Of a stretch of DNA of 64,000 nt, positions 1 to 18,047 are shown in pieces (positions within the stretch are counted from its first letter, which is position 1; every line of letters starts with the position of its first letter). The position numbers and the translations under genes were made by a program. The notes under the pieces were generated by a model that was given only the letters and a program-made list of their open reading frames with translations, was not told the origin of the DNA and did not search any database. This stretch comes from Candidatus Heimdallarchaeota archaeon (GTDB lineage Archaea > Asgardarchaeota > Heimdallarchaeia > Heimdallarchaeales > Heimdallarchaeaceae). The stretch is taken from contig JAEOSZ010000011.1 in assembly GCA_016840095.1 (NCBI GenBank), positions 1 to 64,000 of the forward strand, written 5' to 3'.

Positions 1-68
1 GTGGCTAGGAGGGCTCTTAGTGTGAAAAATTGTCCTATGTGAAAGAATTTTATATTTTTCATAAACAT
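1..68 (-). CDS. Partial CDS (5' end only) running off the window start; hypothetical
   Basis: Reverse-strand frame is open from ATG at 68 (or 62): MFMKNIKFFHIGQFFTLRALLA. A purine-rich stretch lies just upstream, and the orientation matches the neighbouring genes. Confidence 0.45.
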   Translation of the reverse strand, partial: MFMKNIKFFHIGQFFTLRALLA

Positions 69-152
69 CGTTCTCTCTTTTTTATTGTAAAGCTACTTAC
101 CAAGTATTAAGTATTATGTAAAAAAAAAGATTGTGTTGGTGTTAACTAGAAA

Positions 153-527
153 TTATCTCTTGTCACCAACCGACATTAATGTCGTACCTATATAAGAAAC
201 CAACCCTGAGGCAGCTGCAATAATAATAACCCAAATTCCACCAATTTCTATATTTAATGCAGGGTTGCTACTTTGCCATACTCCGAGAAAAACAGTTAGT
301 AAGATTAGAGCTGCTAACATAAATCCTGTTAGAGTCAAATAGGCATTTTTTTCTTGTTCTTTGAAGGATGCCGAAACTGATCCCAGAGAGAAACCACCAA
401 TTATCCCTATTCCAAGGTAAAACAGAAACCACCAATATCTGTCTGTTAGTTGTACAATTGAAATTATCACACCGAAAATTCCTATAGCTGTTAAAGCTCC
501 ACCTATGAATGATGCTGGACGAGGCAT
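153..527 (-). CDS. Small integral membrane protein (about 4 TM), unknown function
   Basis: 124 aa with four hydrophobic segments; GAGATG-type RBS upstream. Confidence 0.75.
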   Translation of the reverse strand: MPRPASFIGGALTAIGIFGVIISIVQLTDRYWWFLFYLGIGIIGGFSLGSVSASFKEQEKNAYLTLTGFMLAALILLTVFLGVWQSSNPALNIEIGGIWVIIIAAASGLVSYIGTTLMSVGDKR

Positions 528-580
528 AATATCATCTCTATTATTTCTAACACCTTGCTTTCTATATTAATATTTCTAAA

Positions 581-9585: not shown

Positions 9586-10323
9586 TCATTTCTTTGTTTG
9601 AAAATCTTTAACTATTGATCCATCACTCATGTGAATCTGTCTGTCAGCTAAAGCAGCAGAGATTTCCGCATGAGTGACATAAATCAGTGTTTTTTTGTGA
9701 GTCTTGCTTAGGTCAATTAGTAATTGAAGTACTTTTTCTCCAGTTTTTGAATCCAGATTTCCAGTAGGTTCATCAGCAAGTAACAGCTTTGGATTGTTTG
9801 CTAATGCTCTTGCTATAGCAACTCTTTGTTGTTCTCCTCCGGAGAGCTGATCCGGATTGTGTGACCTTCTCTCGAGTAGATCTACACTTTTTAGCAGTTT
9901 TTCAACTCTTTTCTTCCTCTCTTCTTTTTCAAGATTAGCAAGAATTAAAGGCATCTCAATATTCTTTTCTGCGTTTATCTCTTCAAGTAAATTGAAATTC
10001 TGGAAAACATATCCGATGGTATCTCTTCTTAGAAAGCTTAATTCTTTATCCTTCATTGAACTTAGTTTCTTTCCATTAATGCTTATAGAACCTGAATCAA
10101 CATAATCCAATGCCCCAATTACATTTAGTAGAGTTGTTTTTCCACTGCCTGAAGGACCTACGATAGAAACAATTTCTCCAGCACTAAAAGAGAGTGACAC
10201 ATTTCTCAGAGCCTGAACCTCAACTTCGCCCATTGTATAACTTTTAGAGACATCCTTCACATCAACAAAAATCTTCTTTGATGTTTTTCTAGTTCTTGGT
10301 TTGATCTTTTTCTTGTCACTCAT
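9586..10323 (-). CDS. ABC ATP-binding protein, LolD/MacB-like
   Basis: [46 protein letters not shown]. Confidence 0.93.
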
Positions 10324-10350: not shown

Positions 10351-10662
10351 TTATTTATCTATTGGGAATCTTTCTTTCATTACCACAATTTCCTTTTTCC
10401 AAGCTTCTTCAAGATCAATATCCTGAAGAATACATAGTTGAAGAAATAAAGAAAAAGCTTGAGCAAATTCCCTCGGTAAATCTTCTTCTTTTGGTTTAGA
10501 ATGACCACTTTCTTCTTTATATTTTGATTGAAAAAGAAGGTGTTTCCCTATTTCACTTAGTTCTTCAAACAAATGAAGCAGAACATCATTTGCAGAGTAC
10601 TTAAACCAACCTCTTTCATTTAAGAAATCATATACTTCTTCTTGAATCTTATGAAGTTCCAT
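10351..10662 (-). CDS. MazG-like all-alpha NTP pyrophosphohydrolase family protein
   Basis: LFEELSEI, REFAQ and IDLEEAWKKE pattern; the last acidic metal ligand appears to be replaced by Q. Confidence 0.7.
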   Translation of the reverse strand: MELHKIQEEVYDFLNERGWFKYSANDVLLHLFEELSEIGKHLLFQSKYKEESGHSKPKEEDLPREFAQAFSLFLQLCILQDIDLEEAWKKEIVVMKERFPIDK

Positions 10663-10674
10663 CTAATTCATCTA

Positions 10675-12735
10675 TTATGCTGCATACTTCTTAAGATTTC
10701 TTTTAGAAACTTTGGTTTTACATATTGGACATTCTGATTTGATTCTCATCCACTGTTCCATATGATCATCATGTGCAACATTATTACAATTTGGACACTC
10801 AGAAACTCTGTCTCCTTTCTTAATCAAACCTTGACAGACTGTACATTTTGTATGCTGTAGTCTACAGTTGCTACAAGGTTCAGTTGAAGAAGTTATTACA
10901 TGACCACAATTTAAACAGTAATTCTTACTTATTGGTAAAACTAATTTTCCCGCTCTTTCGAAATAGGATGCAGTTACAACTCCTTTATAATATCCATGAG
11001 AGATCAATTGGTTCAATAGCTTGAACAGATCTAGTGGATTCATACCAACAGAGTTAGCAATTGTTGTGAGTTTAATTCTCTTTCTTCGTGATTTTTCAAT
11101 TTCATTTACAACTCTTGTATAAATCTCACCAAGCTCACTTAGCTGTTTATTTGGTAAGAATTTCTGACTTGATTCAAGATAAATTGTACTTCCACGGAGA
11201 GAGATGTTCAACAGACCTGACCCAACTAATTCATAAACAATATTCCTAGCAGCAACAAGTGTCTTCTCCCAATATTTCATAATATTTTTAACTGAAACTC
11301 TAGTATTAGAAAGGATATACCCAAATATCTCTTGGTAGTAAATTGGAAGATCATCTAATTGTACTAATGGTGGAAAGATAGGAATTTCTTCAGGTTCAAG
11401 TTTATTTCCAGAAATGTTTCCTTTAATCAAACCTTTTCCATAAAATCCATACATCCTTTCCTTTGCATGATTTCTATCGATACCAAGTGCTTCTTCAATA
11501 TCTTTAGTTGTGATAAATGATTTTGATATTATCATCCCTAAAACAATTTTTTCCCATCTCTCAAGAGTTCCCTCCTGAGTACGGCTATATCGTTTCAAGC
11601 TATCAATATATATTGTTGCACCTCTCAGTGTACAAGTGATAAAACCCTCTAAATAGAGGTTCATAATCCCTTCTAGAACTTCATCAACTTCCCTGTTCAT
11701 CAAAGCTGCTAATCTTTTTAGAGGGATTCTATCTTGGGTTGATAATAAACCAAATAAAGCTTCATAGTTGAAAAATGATAATGAAGCCATTTCTTCAATA
11801 GTTTGATTAGGTGATGTATCTGGAAATACAACTGGTACTAGCTTATTCTTTTCGTTGAAGATAAACTGAAAAGTACCTCTAGCAGTTAGGAAAGCTATTA
11901 GCCTAGTAACCTCTACTTCTTCTTTGTCAATATATTTAGCTAGTTCTTCAATAGTTACTTCTTTTTTCAGAAGTGTAAAACCCACGATGGCTCTTTCATC
12001 ACCTTGTAAAGCTTCTATTGGTAGAGTACGAGGTGCTATCAAATATTTCTTTACATTAATTGTAATCCTACTAGAAATACTGCCTGTAATTTTAAAAGAA
12101 GCCTCCAATTTTCTATATAGCATTAGTTTGGTTATTCTATTAAAAACATCTACTTTACTGAAACCAGTAAGTTTTGCTACCTTATTGATGTCAGCATTTC
12201 TTAGCAGCATACAAGTTCCAATTATGAATGTATCATCAGAACTGATTTTTACCTTCTCTGGAGGTGTCCAAATATTCTGAACAATAATTTGCTGATTTTT
12301 CACAATTGCGATTATCAAACCTCTAATAGTAAGAAATAGAAGATGTGAGTCTAATTCATCTGCAGATATATCTAGAATCTTGCGAAGAAGCTGAAGTCTC
12401 ATTTTTTTATTAGAAGCAAGTATTCCTAACAAACTTTTTCTAATATTACTGAGTCTTCCTGGATTAACACTTGGATATCTGTAGGCAGATGCTAAAACAA
12501 ATCTATCTTTTCGATAATATCCTCTAAGTATAAGTGCTTGAATTAGACTTTGTATATAGTCCTTTATCGCTCCTCTAGGAATACCTGTTTTTTCGGAAAA
12601 AGAACTCAGATTAATTTCTCTATACAAATAGAGCTGTGAAACTATCTGTGACTTTTTTGCTTTTGATAGAGCTACTGTTGGAAGATCAAGTTCATGAAAA
12701 TCTAATTCGATTATATCTTCTCGTTCATAGCTCAG
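10675..12735 (-). CDS. Multi-winged-helix (PCI-like) repeat protein with C-terminal Zn ribbon and RING finger; putative E3 ligase
   Basis: Repeated approx. 70-aa HTH-wing units. C-terminal CLNC..CSNC, then CTVC-x12-CPNC-x4-HDDH...W...CPIC. The frame stays open upstream of the track's TTG (12627) to a CTG at 12735. Confidence 0.8.
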   Translation of the reverse strand: MSYEREDIIELDFHELDLPTVALSKAKKSQIVSQLYLYREINLSSFSEKTGIPRGAIKDYIQSLIQALILRGYYRKDRFVLASAYRYPSVNPGRLSNIRKSLLGILASNKKMRLQLLRKILDISADELDSHLLFLTIRGLIIAIVKNQQIIVQNIWTPPEKVKISSDDTFIIGTCMLLRNADINKVAKLTGFSKVDVFNRITKLMLYRKLEASFKITGSISSRITINVKKYLIAPRTLPIEALQGDERAIVGFTLLKKEVTIEELAKYIDKEEVEVTRLIAFLTARGTFQFIFNEKNKLVPVVFPDTSPNQTIEEMASLSFFNYEALFGLLSTQDRIPLKRLAALMNREVDEVLEGIMNLYLEGFITCTLRGATIYIDSLKRYSRTQEGTLERWEKIVLGMIISKSFITTKDIEEALGIDRNHAKERMYGFYGKGLIKGNISGNKLEPEEIPIFPPLVQLDDLPIYYQEIFGYILSNTRVSVKNIMKYWEKTLVAARNIVYELVGSGLLNISLRGSTIYLESSQKFLPNKQLSELGEIYTRVVNEIEKSRRKRIKLTTIANSVGMNPLDLFKLLNQLISHGYYKGVVTASYFERAGKLVLPISKNYCLNCGHVITSSTEPCSNCRLQHTKCTVCQGLIKKGDRVSECPNCNNVAHDDHMEQWMRIKSECPICKTKVSKRNLKKYAA

Positions 12736-12833
12736 TTGAATCTACCCCAGATAGTTACTTCTAAATAGCATTACATAATTTATTAACGTTACCTTATTGA
12801 AAACAATGAAATGAAAAAAACTAGATTTTGTTC

Positions 12834-14908: not shown

Positions 14909-16798
14909 ATGAATAACAAAAAGATATACTCCTTAGTAACTATATTGCTAATTACAATTTCAATGGGATTTGGATCATTTGATTTCGCGACTCAAGCCGC
15001 TAGTACTACAGAACCAATATTCGAAGGTTTTGTAGCTGAAGGTTTTGAGGATTTTGAAGGAATAAATTTCCCTAATAATACTGTGATAACTGTTGAGTAT
15101 TCTGTAGATCGATTAATAGGTATTGATGGTGTTGTGATTGTTGGTTCAGGTTCAAATCTGACTTTAACACCAGCAACTAGCATTGCATTGAATTTTTCGC
15201 ACTCTCTAGTTGATCGTTCTTATTATACAGGATCCTTTGTCTTAACAAGTTTGACAACTTTCAAAGGATATTCTTGGATCGGTGAAATAAACAATGGAAC
15301 CTATGAAGAACTAGAAATATTCAACCATCTAGAACCATGGCATTATCTTTATGTTACAGATGAAGGAACACCTCCTGAGTTTCTGAGCATTACCAATGCA
15401 ACAACAGCAGGAAGTGAGTATATCTTCTATTCTTCAAGTAACCAAACAAACAATACAATCACCGTTAAATATGTTGCTTACGGAGCTAACGAAAACGATA
15501 CTGTAACCTTAGCATTATCTACATACAGAGATACTATAACTGATGCTTCTTTAGGTGTTTTCAACGGAGATGTAGCTTTCCTAGAAATGAACTATGAGGA
15601 AGGGAATGAAACTTATGGTCAAGTAATTTATAATGCGTCATTCGAATTTACAGATAGAACGCTTTTCTTCAGTGCAAACAACTCTTTTGGTTGGGATAGT
15701 TGGGGTGGTACAAATGAAGTAAGGACTCAATTAATTATATATATGATTTCTAATGGATTCTTTTTCGAATCAACCCCTCTTCAACAAGATAAGATAACTG
15801 ATTTGGATAATATAGCATTTAACATTACTACTTACAATTCAACTGATATTGAGGAATTTGGTATAAGCTATTATGTTTCTGAAAGTATTGAAAATGATAC
15901 AGAAATCATTCCACTTACAACAATTTCAGCAACTCTTGATCAAACATATACCCTTGAGAACGTTTTTGGAAATAATGATACAGTAAGACAATACCTCGTT
16001 TCAATTGGTTCTCTATCTTCTGGAAATCTTCTCTATTATGAAGGATATAATCTCTATTATGATGCATTTTACAATGAAACTGGTGGAGCTATGAAATTGA
16101 TTTACATTTATGATTCGATTCCAGAACTAAAATTGTATCCAGTGAATAATACCTATTCAAGAGATGTCAATATAACCTTTTACTATGAAATTGAAGCAGT
16201 TCGAGGAGTACTTTATAGTGCAGAAATGATTTTTGGTGATGGCACACCAATTACTGATGTTTATGATCCTGAAACTAATAAAACTAATCATATCTATCCT
16301 CAAGTAACTGGAGAATATAATGCTACTCTGTTTATCTCAATAAACATTACAAGAGTAAATGATGTTCCAATTCTCGTCAACCAATCAGTTTCAACTATAA
16401 TTTATCTTGACTTTGAAAATCCTTCGTTGAACATTATTAGTCATACTGCTAATGATTCTGCAATAACTGATGGTTATGTTGAGACATATTTTGAATACGA
16501 TGATGCTTATTCTGGAATTGGTAGAGTATGGATTTTCTGGGATGATGGTATAGTCCAAAATGTAACTGATAGGACATTTGCATTTCATAACTATGTAAAA
16601 GATGGAATATATGAAGTGACCATTATGGTCGAAGATAAGGCTGGTAATCAGATTAATTCTACTATTATATTTACAATTGAATTGGTAGTAGAAACACCTA
16701 CAACTTCTGCTTCATATGCAACTTTGGGAATAATTCTATCCTTACTAATTATCGGATCTATACTAAATAGAAGAAATAAAAGAATAAATAGAAAATAG
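14909..16798 (+). CDS. Secreted/surface glycoprotein with C-terminal PKD/Ig-like domains and TM anchor
   Basis: Signal peptide, many N-x-S/T sequons, FGDG/WDDG..HNY..GIYEVTIMVEDKAGN PKD motifs, Thr-rich linker, TM helix and basic tail. Confidence 0.82.
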   Translation: MNNKKIYSLVTILLITISMGFGSFDFATQAASTTEPIFEGFVAEGFEDFEGINFPNNTVITVEYSVDRLIGIDGVVIVGSGSNLTLTPATSIALNFSHSLVDRSYYTGSFVLTSLTTFKGYSWIGEINNGTYEELEIFNHLEPWHYLYVTDEGTPPEFLSITNATTAGSEYIFYSSSNQTNNTITVKYVAYGANENDTVTLALSTYRDTITDASLGVFNGDVAFLEMNYEEGNETYGQVIYNASFEFTDRTLFFSANNSFGWDSWGGTNEVRTQLIIYMISNGFFFESTPLQQDKITDLDNIAFNITTYNSTDIEEFGISYYVSESIENDTEIIPLTTISATLDQTYTLENVFGNNDTVRQYLVSIGSLSSGNLLYYEGYNLYYDAFYNETGGAMKLIYIYDSIPELKLYPVNNTYSRDVNITFYYEIEAVRGVLYSAEMIFGDGTPITDVYDPETNKTNHIYPQVTGEYNATLFISINITRVNDVPILVNQSVSTIIYLDFENPSLNIISHTANDSAITDGYVETYFEYDDAYSGIGRVWIFWDDGIVQNVTDRTFAFHNYVKDGIYEVTIMVEDKAGNQINSTIIFTIELVVETPTTSASYATLGIILSLLIIGSILNRRNKRINRK

Positions 16799-17084: not shown

Positions 17085-18047
17085 GTGTCTGGAATGAGTG
17101 AAGAACGCTGCCCAAATTGTAATTCAGTAGAAATTATTGATGACTACACACGTGGTGAATCAATTTGTAGTAACTGTGGGTTAGTGGTTTCTAAGTTAAT
17201 TGATACATCTCCTGAATGGAGAGCATTTACTGGAGAAGAGAAAGCTTCTCGAAGTAGAACTGGCGCACCAATATCAGCTTTGAAATCTGATTATGGTGTT
17301 TCATCTCAAATTAGTTTTGGTAACATGGATATATTTGGAAAGAAATTGGATCCAGCTGTTATGGCAAAAATGAGAAGATTGAGATGGCTCAACAGAAGAG
17401 ATTCTCGATCACAGATTCGTAACTTGAGAATAGCTTTGAGAGATTTGAAAAGAATAGTTAGTCAGCTTGAGTTAAGTGATGAAATAGCTGAAGCAGCAGC
17501 AACAACTTATAGAAAAGCTTTGAAAGCAGATTTAATCCGTGGAAGAAGTATTGAGTCTATGGTTGCTGCAGCAATTTACATAGCAGCTCGTCAATATAAT
17601 AACCCAACCACACTCAAAGATATAGAAAAACATATTCGGGCAGATAAGAAAGTAATAGCTCGATGTTTCAGACTATATGTTCAAGAACTAAACATTAAAC
17701 CAACACCAATAGATCCTGCAGTACTTCTTGCTAAATTATGTAATGAACTTGAATTAACAACAGCTACACAAAATGAAGCTCTTAAGATTCTTGAAGAGAG
17801 TAAATCAAGAAGACTTGATATGGGTAAAAATCCATTGAGTGTTGCTGCAGCTGCAATATACATTGCTGGTATCAGAACTGGTGAAAGAAGAACTCAACAA
17901 CAAGTTGCTAAAGTAGCAAAAACAACTCCAGTTACATTAAGAAATAGATTCCGAGAAATAGTTGATTCTCTAGAACTAGCTAATGTAATAGTAAAGAGAG
18001 GAGCAGCTTCAGCCCCTGTTTATGTAAGAGATCCGTGGAAGTTCTAA
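17085..18047 (+). CDS. tfb: Transcription initiation factor IIB
   Basis: CPNC..CSNCG Zn ribbon, PEWRAF B-reader, two cyclin repeats (RGRSIE..., GKNP.., RTQQQVAKVA...TLRNR). Confidence 0.96.
   Translation: MSGMSEERCPNCNSVEIIDDYTRGESICSNCGLVVSKLIDTSPEWRAFTGEEKASRSRTGAPISALKSDYGVSSQISFGNMDIFGKKLDPAVMAKMRRLRWLNRRDSRSQIRNLRIALRDLKRIVSQLELSDEIAEAAATTYRKALKADLIRGRSIESMVAAAIYIAARQYNNPTTLKDIEKHIRADKKVIARCFRLYVQELNIKPTPIDPAVLLAKLCNELELTTATQNEALKILEESKSRRLDMGKNPLSVAAAAIYIAGIRTGERRTQQQVAKVAKTTPVTLRNRFREIVDSLELANVIVKRGAASAPVYVRDPWKF

Follow-up and report, generated by a model that had tools for sequence, protein, structure and literature searches.

Where did the many substrate-specific E3 ligases of the eukaryotic ubiquitin system originate? 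We came to this open question through one gene in a 64,000-nucleotide stretch of a Candidatus Heimdallarchaeota archaeon (GCA_016840095.1, contig JAEOSZ010000011.1, positions 1 to 64,000). We call this whole stretch the window and give positions in its coordinates. The gene lies on the minus strand with its stop codon at 10675-10677 and a frame open to 12741, so the product is about 686-688 amino acids. It carries eight winged helices (WHs) followed by a zinc ribbon and a RING finger, and we refer to the protein as 8WH and to the gene as 8WH-RING. A first-pass annotation had proposed a candidate E3 ubiquitin ligase on a PCI-like scaffold or a nucleic-acid-binding array. The ligase part of this proposal is supported by the identity of the RING, the conservation of its linchpin and its contacts to ubiquitin-conjugating enzymes (E2s), and the ubiquitin, E1 (activating enzyme) and E2 genes of the host, but the labels PCI-like, scaffold and nucleic-acid binder did not stand as they had been put. 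From sequence comparisons and structural models, we think that 8WH is probably an E3 ubiquitin ligase of the RING type, built as a single chain and specific to one order of Heimdallarchaeia.

Domain layout

We built an AlphaFold2 model of the full protein on 34 family members (mean predicted local distance difference test score, pLDDT, 87; predicted template modelling score, pTM, 0.69). The model contains eight tandem helix-strand-helix-helix-wing units, then a C4 zinc ribbon, and finally a cross-brace RING with C4H2C2 ligands. The annotation's "about eight repeats" of a helix-turn-helix and wing unit of roughly 70 amino acids was correct. From the N-terminus, the features are:

10675-12735, minus strand: coding sequence of the 8WH-RING gene, about 686 amino acids with CTG 12735 as the start; conserved reading frame from 12741 on
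12466-12672, minus strand: winged helix 1, residues 24-92 in the AlphaFold2 model, net charge +8
12262-12456, minus strand: winged helix 2, residues 96-160; closest single match the DDRGK1 winged helix (8oj0_C, Z 9.5), tied with other winged helices
12034-12249, minus strand: winged helix 3, residues 165-236; MarR/ArsR-like fold, net charge +8
11824-12012, minus strand: winged helix 4, residues 244-306; Csa3/MarR-like fold, invariant TARGTFQ
11587-11808, minus strand: winged helix 5, residues 312-385; among the two most conserved domains, with the near-invariant linker RYSRTQEGTLERW after it
11377-11568, minus strand: winged helix 6, residues 392-455; PCI/UFL1-type fold, invariant FYGKGLIKG, with the near-invariant linker IPIFPPLVQLDD after it
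11158-11352, minus strand: winged helix 7, residues 464-528; closest to PCI winged helices of the COP9 signalosome (CSN) and the proteasome lid (Z 9.0-9.5, tied)
10942-11148, minus strand: winged helix 8, residues 532-600 in the AlphaFold2 model
10852-10932, minus strand: C4 zinc ribbon (C609, C612, C623, C626), residues ~604-630, separated from the RING by a constant 6 residues
10678-10851, minus strand: C4H2C2 RING finger (C633, C636, C649, C652, H657, H660, C671, C674), residues 631-688, with V635, W664, P672 and linchpin K675

The zinc ribbon and RING

The case for a ligase begins with the tail. We built a profile of the ribbon and RING from 46 diverse sequences, in which all 12 zinc ligands are invariant and the spacing between the two modules is fixed. 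Both motifs picked out in the annotation are present and are invariant across this set: CLNC..CSNC is the ribbon, and CTVC..CPNC..HDDH.EQW..CPIC, which includes W664, is the RING. For the contact residues we counted 83 sequences. The ligand spacing of the RING (x2-x12-x2-x4-x2-x10-x2) is constant in all but one of them (82/83), a valine or isoleucine stands before ligand 2 in every one (83/83), and the tryptophan and the proline after ligand 7 are kept in 79 and 82, respectively. A lysine or arginine linchpin follows the last cysteine in 78 of the 83.

The Pfam model zf-RING_2 scored 27.7-27.8 bits on the protein, barely over its cut-off of 27.3, and 33.7 bits in the genome scan; it matches 34 of 34 aligned members at E <= 0.01. 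When the tail profile was compared with the PDB, the best match was ARK2C/RNF165/Arkadia (E 4e-9), followed by RNF24, RNF126, EL5, RNF38, HRD1 and RLIM. We also modelled the tail by itself (pLDDT 82); this model fits RNF4 with Z 8.9 and a root-mean-square deviation (rmsd) of 2.1 over 57 residues, and it is also close to the Prp19 U-box (Z 8.9) and Ring1B (Z 8.3). The best 50 fold matches of the RING part were all RINGs, U-boxes or other RING-like fingers. That the C-terminus is a cross-brace RING had been set beforehand as a refutable point, and, as far as predictions go, it holds by Pfam, by the PDB profile and by the fold of the model. The RING has a CPxC knuckle instead of the usual C-x-H, with an invariant asparagine at the histidine position, and its ligand 6 is a histidine rather than a cysteine.

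The ubiquitin system of the host and modelled E2 docking

An E3 needs partners, and the annotation had asked whether the genome holds them. In the host genome (3.44 Mb, 89% complete), profile searches matched four E2s (UQ_con), two ubiquitins, three ThiF/E1-like proteins and 16 zf-RING_2 proteins, and two of the E2s carry the HPN and catalytic-cysteine motifs. Ubiquitin, E1-like and E2 genes are all present, so the lack of a ubiquitin system is excluded. There are two clusters of ubiquitin, E1 and E2 genes, on contigs 118 and 159. One of them has ubiquitin, E1-like and E2-like genes in a row, and the other consists of an E2, a JAMM/MPN protein, a ubiquitin-like gene and an E1-like gene. Cascades of E1, E2 and RING proteins from Asgard archaea and Caldiarchaeum have been reconstituted in vitro (PMC5654768; bioRxiv 10.1101/2023.07.25.550441).

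We modelled the tail (residues 598-688) with the genome's best canonical E2 (155 amino acids, contig 49) and with three controls. The interaction prediction score from aligned errors (ipSAE) was 0.69 for the E2 vs 0.00 for the best of the controls; among the benchmark pairs for the mark used with this score, it was reached in 58 of the 80 solved complexes and in 2 of the 110 mismatched ones. The tail-E2 runs agreed in at least 97% of contacts, with a partner pLDDT of at least 91. In the modelled interface V635, W664, P672, I673 and K675 face helix 1, F62 and T93-P94-A95 of the E2. Many RING-E2 complexes have been solved and the prediction may simply reproduce them, so we read the model as showing likeness, not binding. 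The open reading frame (ORF) of this E2 starts with GTG and would give 171 amino acids (L001:1405-1920, plus strand), but the start is likely the ATG 16 codons downstream because all orthologues have 155 amino acids.

Similarity of the tail to IFT-A and GATOR2

The C-terminal zinc tails of IFT-A and GATOR2 are mainly structural or assembly junctions. Over ribbon and RING together, our tail profile matches WDR19/IFT144 (E 1.8e-7), MIOS (6.6e-6), WDR24 (3.7e-5), WDR59 (2.2e-4) and another IFT-A WD40 protein. In Foldseek, the tail model likewise matches the IFT-A protein WDR19 best (8bbg_A; query TM-score, TMq, 0.61 over 83 columns), with GATOR2 chains after it. The likeness in layout is a real one.

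It could be argued from these matches that 8WH is a non-catalytic scaffold, in which the tail serves as a structural junction like those of GATOR2 and IFT-A and the WH array assembles a complex without ligase activity. PCI-type winged helices are protein-protein modules, which would suit such a part. We judge this unlikely. One would not expect a purely structural RING to keep the E2-contact triad and the basic linchpin in 78-83 of 83 sequences, as is seen here, and the RING alone does better against the catalytic RING-H2 ligases (the E of 4e-9 given above) than against the IFT-A and GATOR2 tails. In the docking model the E2 sits at the canonical face with the ribbon present, although this too may reproduce known complexes.

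The winged-helix array

In profile-profile comparisons of the eight WH units, many pairs reached probabilities of up to 96%, which fits internal duplication. Conservation is highest in WH5, WH6 and both linkers flanking WH6 (mean column identity 0.87).

What the array binds is harder to read from its fold. A fold search with the whole model gave single-domain matches only, all tied at Z 8-9.5. Single units match DNA-binding winged helix-turn-helix (wHTH) domains (MarR, ArsR, Csa3) and PCI-type winged helices (DDRGK1, CSN, lid, eIF3) equally, also at Z 8-9.5, and because of these ties the fold does not separate a scaffold from a nucleic-acid binder.

We considered that the array might bind DNA or RNA. 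As such it would regulate the adjacent surface-protein and ATP-binding cassette (ABC) transporter genes, or act as a chromatin or ribosome factor, with the RING accessory or targeting proteins there. The closest folds to WH3 and WH4 are indeed the MarR, ArsR and Csa3 DNA-binding domains (Z 8.6-9.5), and multi-WH structural matches of the full model include TFIIIC tauB, RPC82 and SelB. The protein is basic, with an isoelectric point (pI) of 9.35 (family members 8.9-9.5) vs 5.8 as the median of the window's large ORFs, and WH1-3 and WH8 have net charges of +6 to +8. However, the basic pI is not kept in more distant relatives (5.5-9.2), and the recognition helices begin with acidic residues and show a PCI-type pattern, not a basic one. 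A 688-residue protein with eight winged helices that keeps all of the E2-binding hallmarks of a RING would also be an atypical local regulator. We hold the nucleic-acid reading to be improbable, and the role of nucleic-acid binder that the annotation had offered was not borne out as stated. Further points in its favour come from a distant relative and from the neighbouring genes, and are given in the sections on distribution and neighbourhood.

Tests against known families

The annotation had called the array PCI-like and likened it to the scaffolds of the proteasome lid, CSN, eIF3 and ESCRT-II. The Pfam PCI model (PF01399) gave a summed score of 28.0-28.8 bits vs a cut-off of 22, with no single stretch passing alone, and 22 of 34 members match. 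In the AlphaFold2 model the helical-repeat half of PCI is absent: the units of about 65-70 amino acids consist of three helices and a wing, with no helical-repeat segment between them. We rejected a PCI protein on the grounds that the half that defines PCI is missing from every unit. PCI-like is a fair description of the winged-helix half, but it fails for the helical-repeat half and for a single-stretch Pfam match, and a scaffold role of the lid, CSN, eIF3 or ESCRT-II type was not confirmed in that form.

For the full model, Foldseek placed the UFL1-DDRGK1 chimera 8b9x first (E 1.9e-7, 284 columns, rmsd about 14-15), after which came ribosome-bound UFL1 entries, with TFIIIC tauB, SelB and RPC82 also among the matches. 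WH2 and WH6 match the DDRGK1 and UFL1 winged helices at Z 8.4-9.5, there are weak Pfam DDRGK matches in relatives, and UFL1 and DDRGK1 are reported to originate in Asgard archaea (Picchianti et al., PMC10183829). A UFL1-type scaffold ligase for a non-ubiquitin modifier would fit these observations, with the WH array itself placing a non-canonical E2, in the way that UFC1 is positioned by UFL1-DDRGK1. We think that this is very unlikely. The rigid-body fit to UFL1 is poor, as the rmsd shows, and UFL1 is without a RING. The Pfam model E3_UFM1_ligase (PF09743) matches 1 of 34 members, below threshold (E 1.5e-4), and the genome has a separate and genuine PF09743 gene for a UFL1-like protein of 252 amino acids on contig 43 (L031:1264-2022, plus strand; 35.1 bits vs a cut-off of 23.2), whose hhalign probability against the 8WH family is 1%. 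We ruled out UFL1 membership by the sub-threshold Pfam result and by this separate gene, and the 8WH-RING gene is not the Asgard UFL1 homologue. Ufm1 (PF03671) and UFC1 (PF08694) were not found in the 89%-complete genome, although the UFC1 control matched in no genome. The UFL1-like protein of contig 43 also weakly matches PCI and DDRGK, and its gene lies between KaiC-like and RadA/Rad51-like genes.

Other candidates were checked in the same way. TFE-alpha/TFIIE-alpha, which combines a winged helix with a zinc ribbon, was ruled out because its profile reached only 18.7-18.8 bits vs a cut-off of 22.9 and because the match fell on WH6, not on the winged helix next to the ribbon. No Nse1 family was among the Pfam matches of the protein and its members, and the RING part matched the Smc5/6 holocomplex chain 7qcd_C at Z 7.5, level with many other RINGs. 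A defence system was rejected because PADLOC gave weak generic wHTH matches only (Csa3, CasR, CARF) and nothing specific. Neither 8WH nor two neighbouring proteins, one of 103 amino acids and one with a PKD domain, which are described with the gene neighbourhood, have a family in NCBIfam.

Distribution of the family

We searched a WH-only profile against 1.84 billion representative proteins and obtained 55 clusters, in which nearly all full-length members have the ribbon and the same RING. Named members come from Heimdallarchaeaceae, Kariarchaeaceae and Hodarchaeales metagenome-assembled genomes. In a survey of 400 genomes of the phylum, the family was present in 30 of 30 genomes of its own family and in 13 of 16 from the three sister families of the order, usually as one copy. 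It was present in 0 of 22 genomes of the next family of the class, and of the roughly 353 genomes in the rest of the phylum 3 have it. The 8WH family is essentially restricted to one order and is nearly single-copy, and its near-universality (30/30) at that copy number indicates a conserved cellular role. One Hodarchaeales relative (942 amino acids; P0061, L024:7001-9829) keeps seven winged helices and then has a cysteine cluster and a PD-(D/E)xK nuclease of Mrr type; this fusion of the array to a nuclease counts in favour of nucleic-acid binding.

Database names for the members are automatic ("RING finger domain-containing protein", "E3 ubiquitin protein ligase", "TFIIE alpha"), and our literature searches found no description of an architecture of eight winged helices, ribbon and RING.

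Reading frame and start codon

The start codon needed closer inspection. The only ORF listed begins at TTG 12627 (650 amino acids), but the 44 close homologues are mostly 691 amino acids long and reach ~38 residues beyond that start, and their N-terminal motif ..LSYEREDV.. is encoded in the window upstream of TTG 12627. At the position of the relatives' start codon there is an in-frame TAG. These are the features of the region:

12742-12744, minus strand: in-frame TAG at the position of the relatives' start codon, from a comparison across same-genus genomes
12745-12748, minus strand: GGGG, possibly a Shine-Dalgarno-like element judging from its spacing, 9 nt upstream of CTG 12735
12780-12798, minus strand: A/T-rich upstream block (AATAAGGTAACGTTAATAA), a possible promoter element

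The same TAG is found in three other genomes of the genus, while a fourth has GTG there and a fifth ATG. We ruled out a sequencing error because these three genomes have the TAG too. In comparisons with three same-genus genomes, the 38-codon stretch after the TAG has 9-12 synonymous vs 5-7 non-synonymous differences, and because the changes are mostly synonymous or conservative this stretch 5' of TTG 12627 is coding and under purifying selection. The ancestral start codon has been replaced by TAG in this sub-clade, and since the codons after it are still conserved, the start is now non-canonical. It is probably CTG 12735, which reads TTG in one relative. The annotation had placed the start at 12735, and by homologue lengths and the conserved codons upstream of TTG 12627 this earlier start is the most plausible one. 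The block AATAAGGTAACGTTAATAA is largely conserved across six genomes, with many invariant columns and some variable positions.

Gene neighbourhood

Three neighbours of the 8WH-RING gene are conserved:

10351-10662, minus strand: protein of 103 amino acids, possibly MazG-like, 12 nt downstream of the 8WH-RING gene
9586-10323, minus strand: ABC ATPase of the MacB/LolD/FtsE type, downstream of the 103-residue gene
14909-16798, plus strand: surface glycoprotein of 629 amino acids with a PKD domain, order-specific

In Heimdallarchaeaceae the order is the 8WH-RING gene, the 103-residue gene tightly after it and then the ABC ATPase; the second and third of these recur near the 8WH-RING gene in all four families. 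The likeness of the 103-residue protein to a MazG-like pyrophosphatase is weak (E 0.027). Upstream of the 8WH-RING gene are glutamine synthetase (GlnA), a PvlArgDC-like gene and the divergent surface-protein gene. The surface protein has a signal peptide, 25 N-x-S/T sequons, the PKD domain and a C-terminal transmembrane (TM) segment, and the short basic K/R tail after the TM segment resembles a sorting signal.

To trace the linkage to the surface protein we used a targeted tblastn together with a search of the genomes. Because of the relatedness among these genomes, the counts that follow are not independent. In the own family the arrangement could be determined in 27 genomes, and in 26 of them the surface-protein gene is within 2.3 kb of the 8WH-RING gene. 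In one sister family, all 7 genomes that allow a determination have an orthologue, with 25-30% identity over its full length, directly downstream and on the same strand, and the same placement directly downstream is found on one further metagenome contig. The linkage is thereby seen in two families and in three different arrangements. GlnA and TFB, which are also neighbours here, are not kept in that sister family. With the full-length query the surface protein was found in 47 of 47 genomes of the order, and its first 500 residues had no match in about 353 genomes elsewhere in the phylum. Nothing was shared between the neighbourhoods of the three most distant relatives that were first examined.

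We regard the linkage to the surface-protein and ABC genes as suggestive of a functional tie and not as proof of one. It also favours the nucleic-acid reading, as does the position of the 8WH-RING gene at the head of a row of ABC-transporter genes.

In relatives, small membrane proteins with four TM segments and a protein with roughly 10 come after the ABC ATPase. Their orthologues here are at the window start (1-530, minus strand), about 9 kb off, and the genes between are for a major facilitator superfamily (MFS) protein, an acetyltransferase and two ABC exporters. The TFB (TFIIB) gene is at 17085-18047 (plus strand), about 4 kb from the 8WH-RING gene, and is syntenic in the own family only.

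Proposed function

If 8WH is an order-specific ubiquitin ligase, the three-zinc module of ribbon and RING would bind a ubiquitin-charged canonical E2 through V635, W664 and P672/I673, as in the docking model, and the invariant K675 linchpin would prime the charged E2 for transfer. The eight winged helices would serve as an arm that holds a substrate or partner, and the near-invariant WH5-WH7 core with its two linkers would be the most likely docking surface.

Several observations weigh against a ligase. The ligand pattern is an atypical C4H2C2 and not the canonical C3H2C3, according to the HMMER alignment, and the similarity of the whole tail to the zinc modules of IFT-A WDR19 and of GATOR2 MIOS, WDR24 and WDR59 is significant. 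The gene lies outside any ubiquitin operon. The Hodarchaeales relative ends in the Mrr-type nuclease where the others have a RING, and a wHTH regulator acting locally would be just as compatible with the conserved neighbours, which are an ABC transporter and a secreted surface protein.

We also considered a more specific role, which we think is quite unlikely. The order-specific E3 might connect ubiquitin-type signalling with the cell envelope or with DNA. Its WH arm would work together with the persistently linked surface-glycoprotein and ABC genes, and could do so by regulating their expression at the DNA or by tagging a partner in the membrane or the cytosol. In that event the tails that later appear on eukaryotic IFT-A and GATOR2 would have an archaeal relative in the tail of 8WH.

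The family is conserved, and the sequences and models point to an E3 of an undescribed build as the most likely reading. If this is true, the whole lineage would have an E3 that brings its own arm of several domains, in contrast to the small RING proteins from operons that have been tested to date. The genomes of members contain complete sets of E1, E2 and ubiquitin, which should allow its reconstitution in vitro with enzymes of the archaeon itself, and the conserved gene linkage gives the first candidates for what the 8WH protein acts on.

Comparison with known systems

The nearest functional relatives would be the catalytic RING-H2 E3s (ARK2C/RNF165, Arkadia, RNF38, EL5, RNF4) and the reconstituted small RING E3s of archaea (Caldiarchaeum srfp and the Helarchaeial RING E3). 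8WH has in common with both a cross-brace RING with two zincs, the hydrophobic V/I, W and P contacts, the basic linchpin after the last cysteine and a host that encodes E1, E2 and ubiquitin. It differs from them in its C4H2C2 pattern with the CPxC knuckle, in the rigidly attached ribbon, in the placement of the RING behind eight winged helices and in the location of its gene outside the ubiquitin operon, and it is known from sequence and models.

Nse1 of Smc5/6 (WH-WH-RING) likewise has winged helices and then a variant RING in one chain. However, Nse1 has two winged helices where 8WH has eight, and no kleisin or SMC context was noted for 8WH, although no search of the genomic context was aimed at it.

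Among the PCI subunits of the proteasome lid, CSN and eIF3 we find the winged helices closest to WH6-WH8 (Z 8-9.5). In those complexes the winged helices are spread over six separate subunits, each with a helical-repeat half, whereas 8WH has its eight units in one chain. UFL1-DDRGK1 (PDB 8b9x, 8ohd, 8qfc, 8c0d) is likewise a linear tandem array of PCI-type winged helices associated with an E3. UFL1 lacks a RING, its arrangement does not superpose on the 8WH model, and there is no membership at the sequence level.

The tails of IFT-A (WDR19/IFT144, IFT122) and GATOR2/SEACAT (MIOS, WDR24, WDR59) have an identical tandem of ribbon and then RING. They sit behind a beta-propeller and an alpha-solenoid, where 8WH has eight winged helices in its N-terminal 600 residues, and unlike in these tails the E2-binding hallmarks are conserved in the 8WH family. 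The family unites in one chain modules that eukaryotes use separately, namely WH arrays of the PCI and UFL1 type and the ribbon and RING tail of IFT-A and GATOR2.

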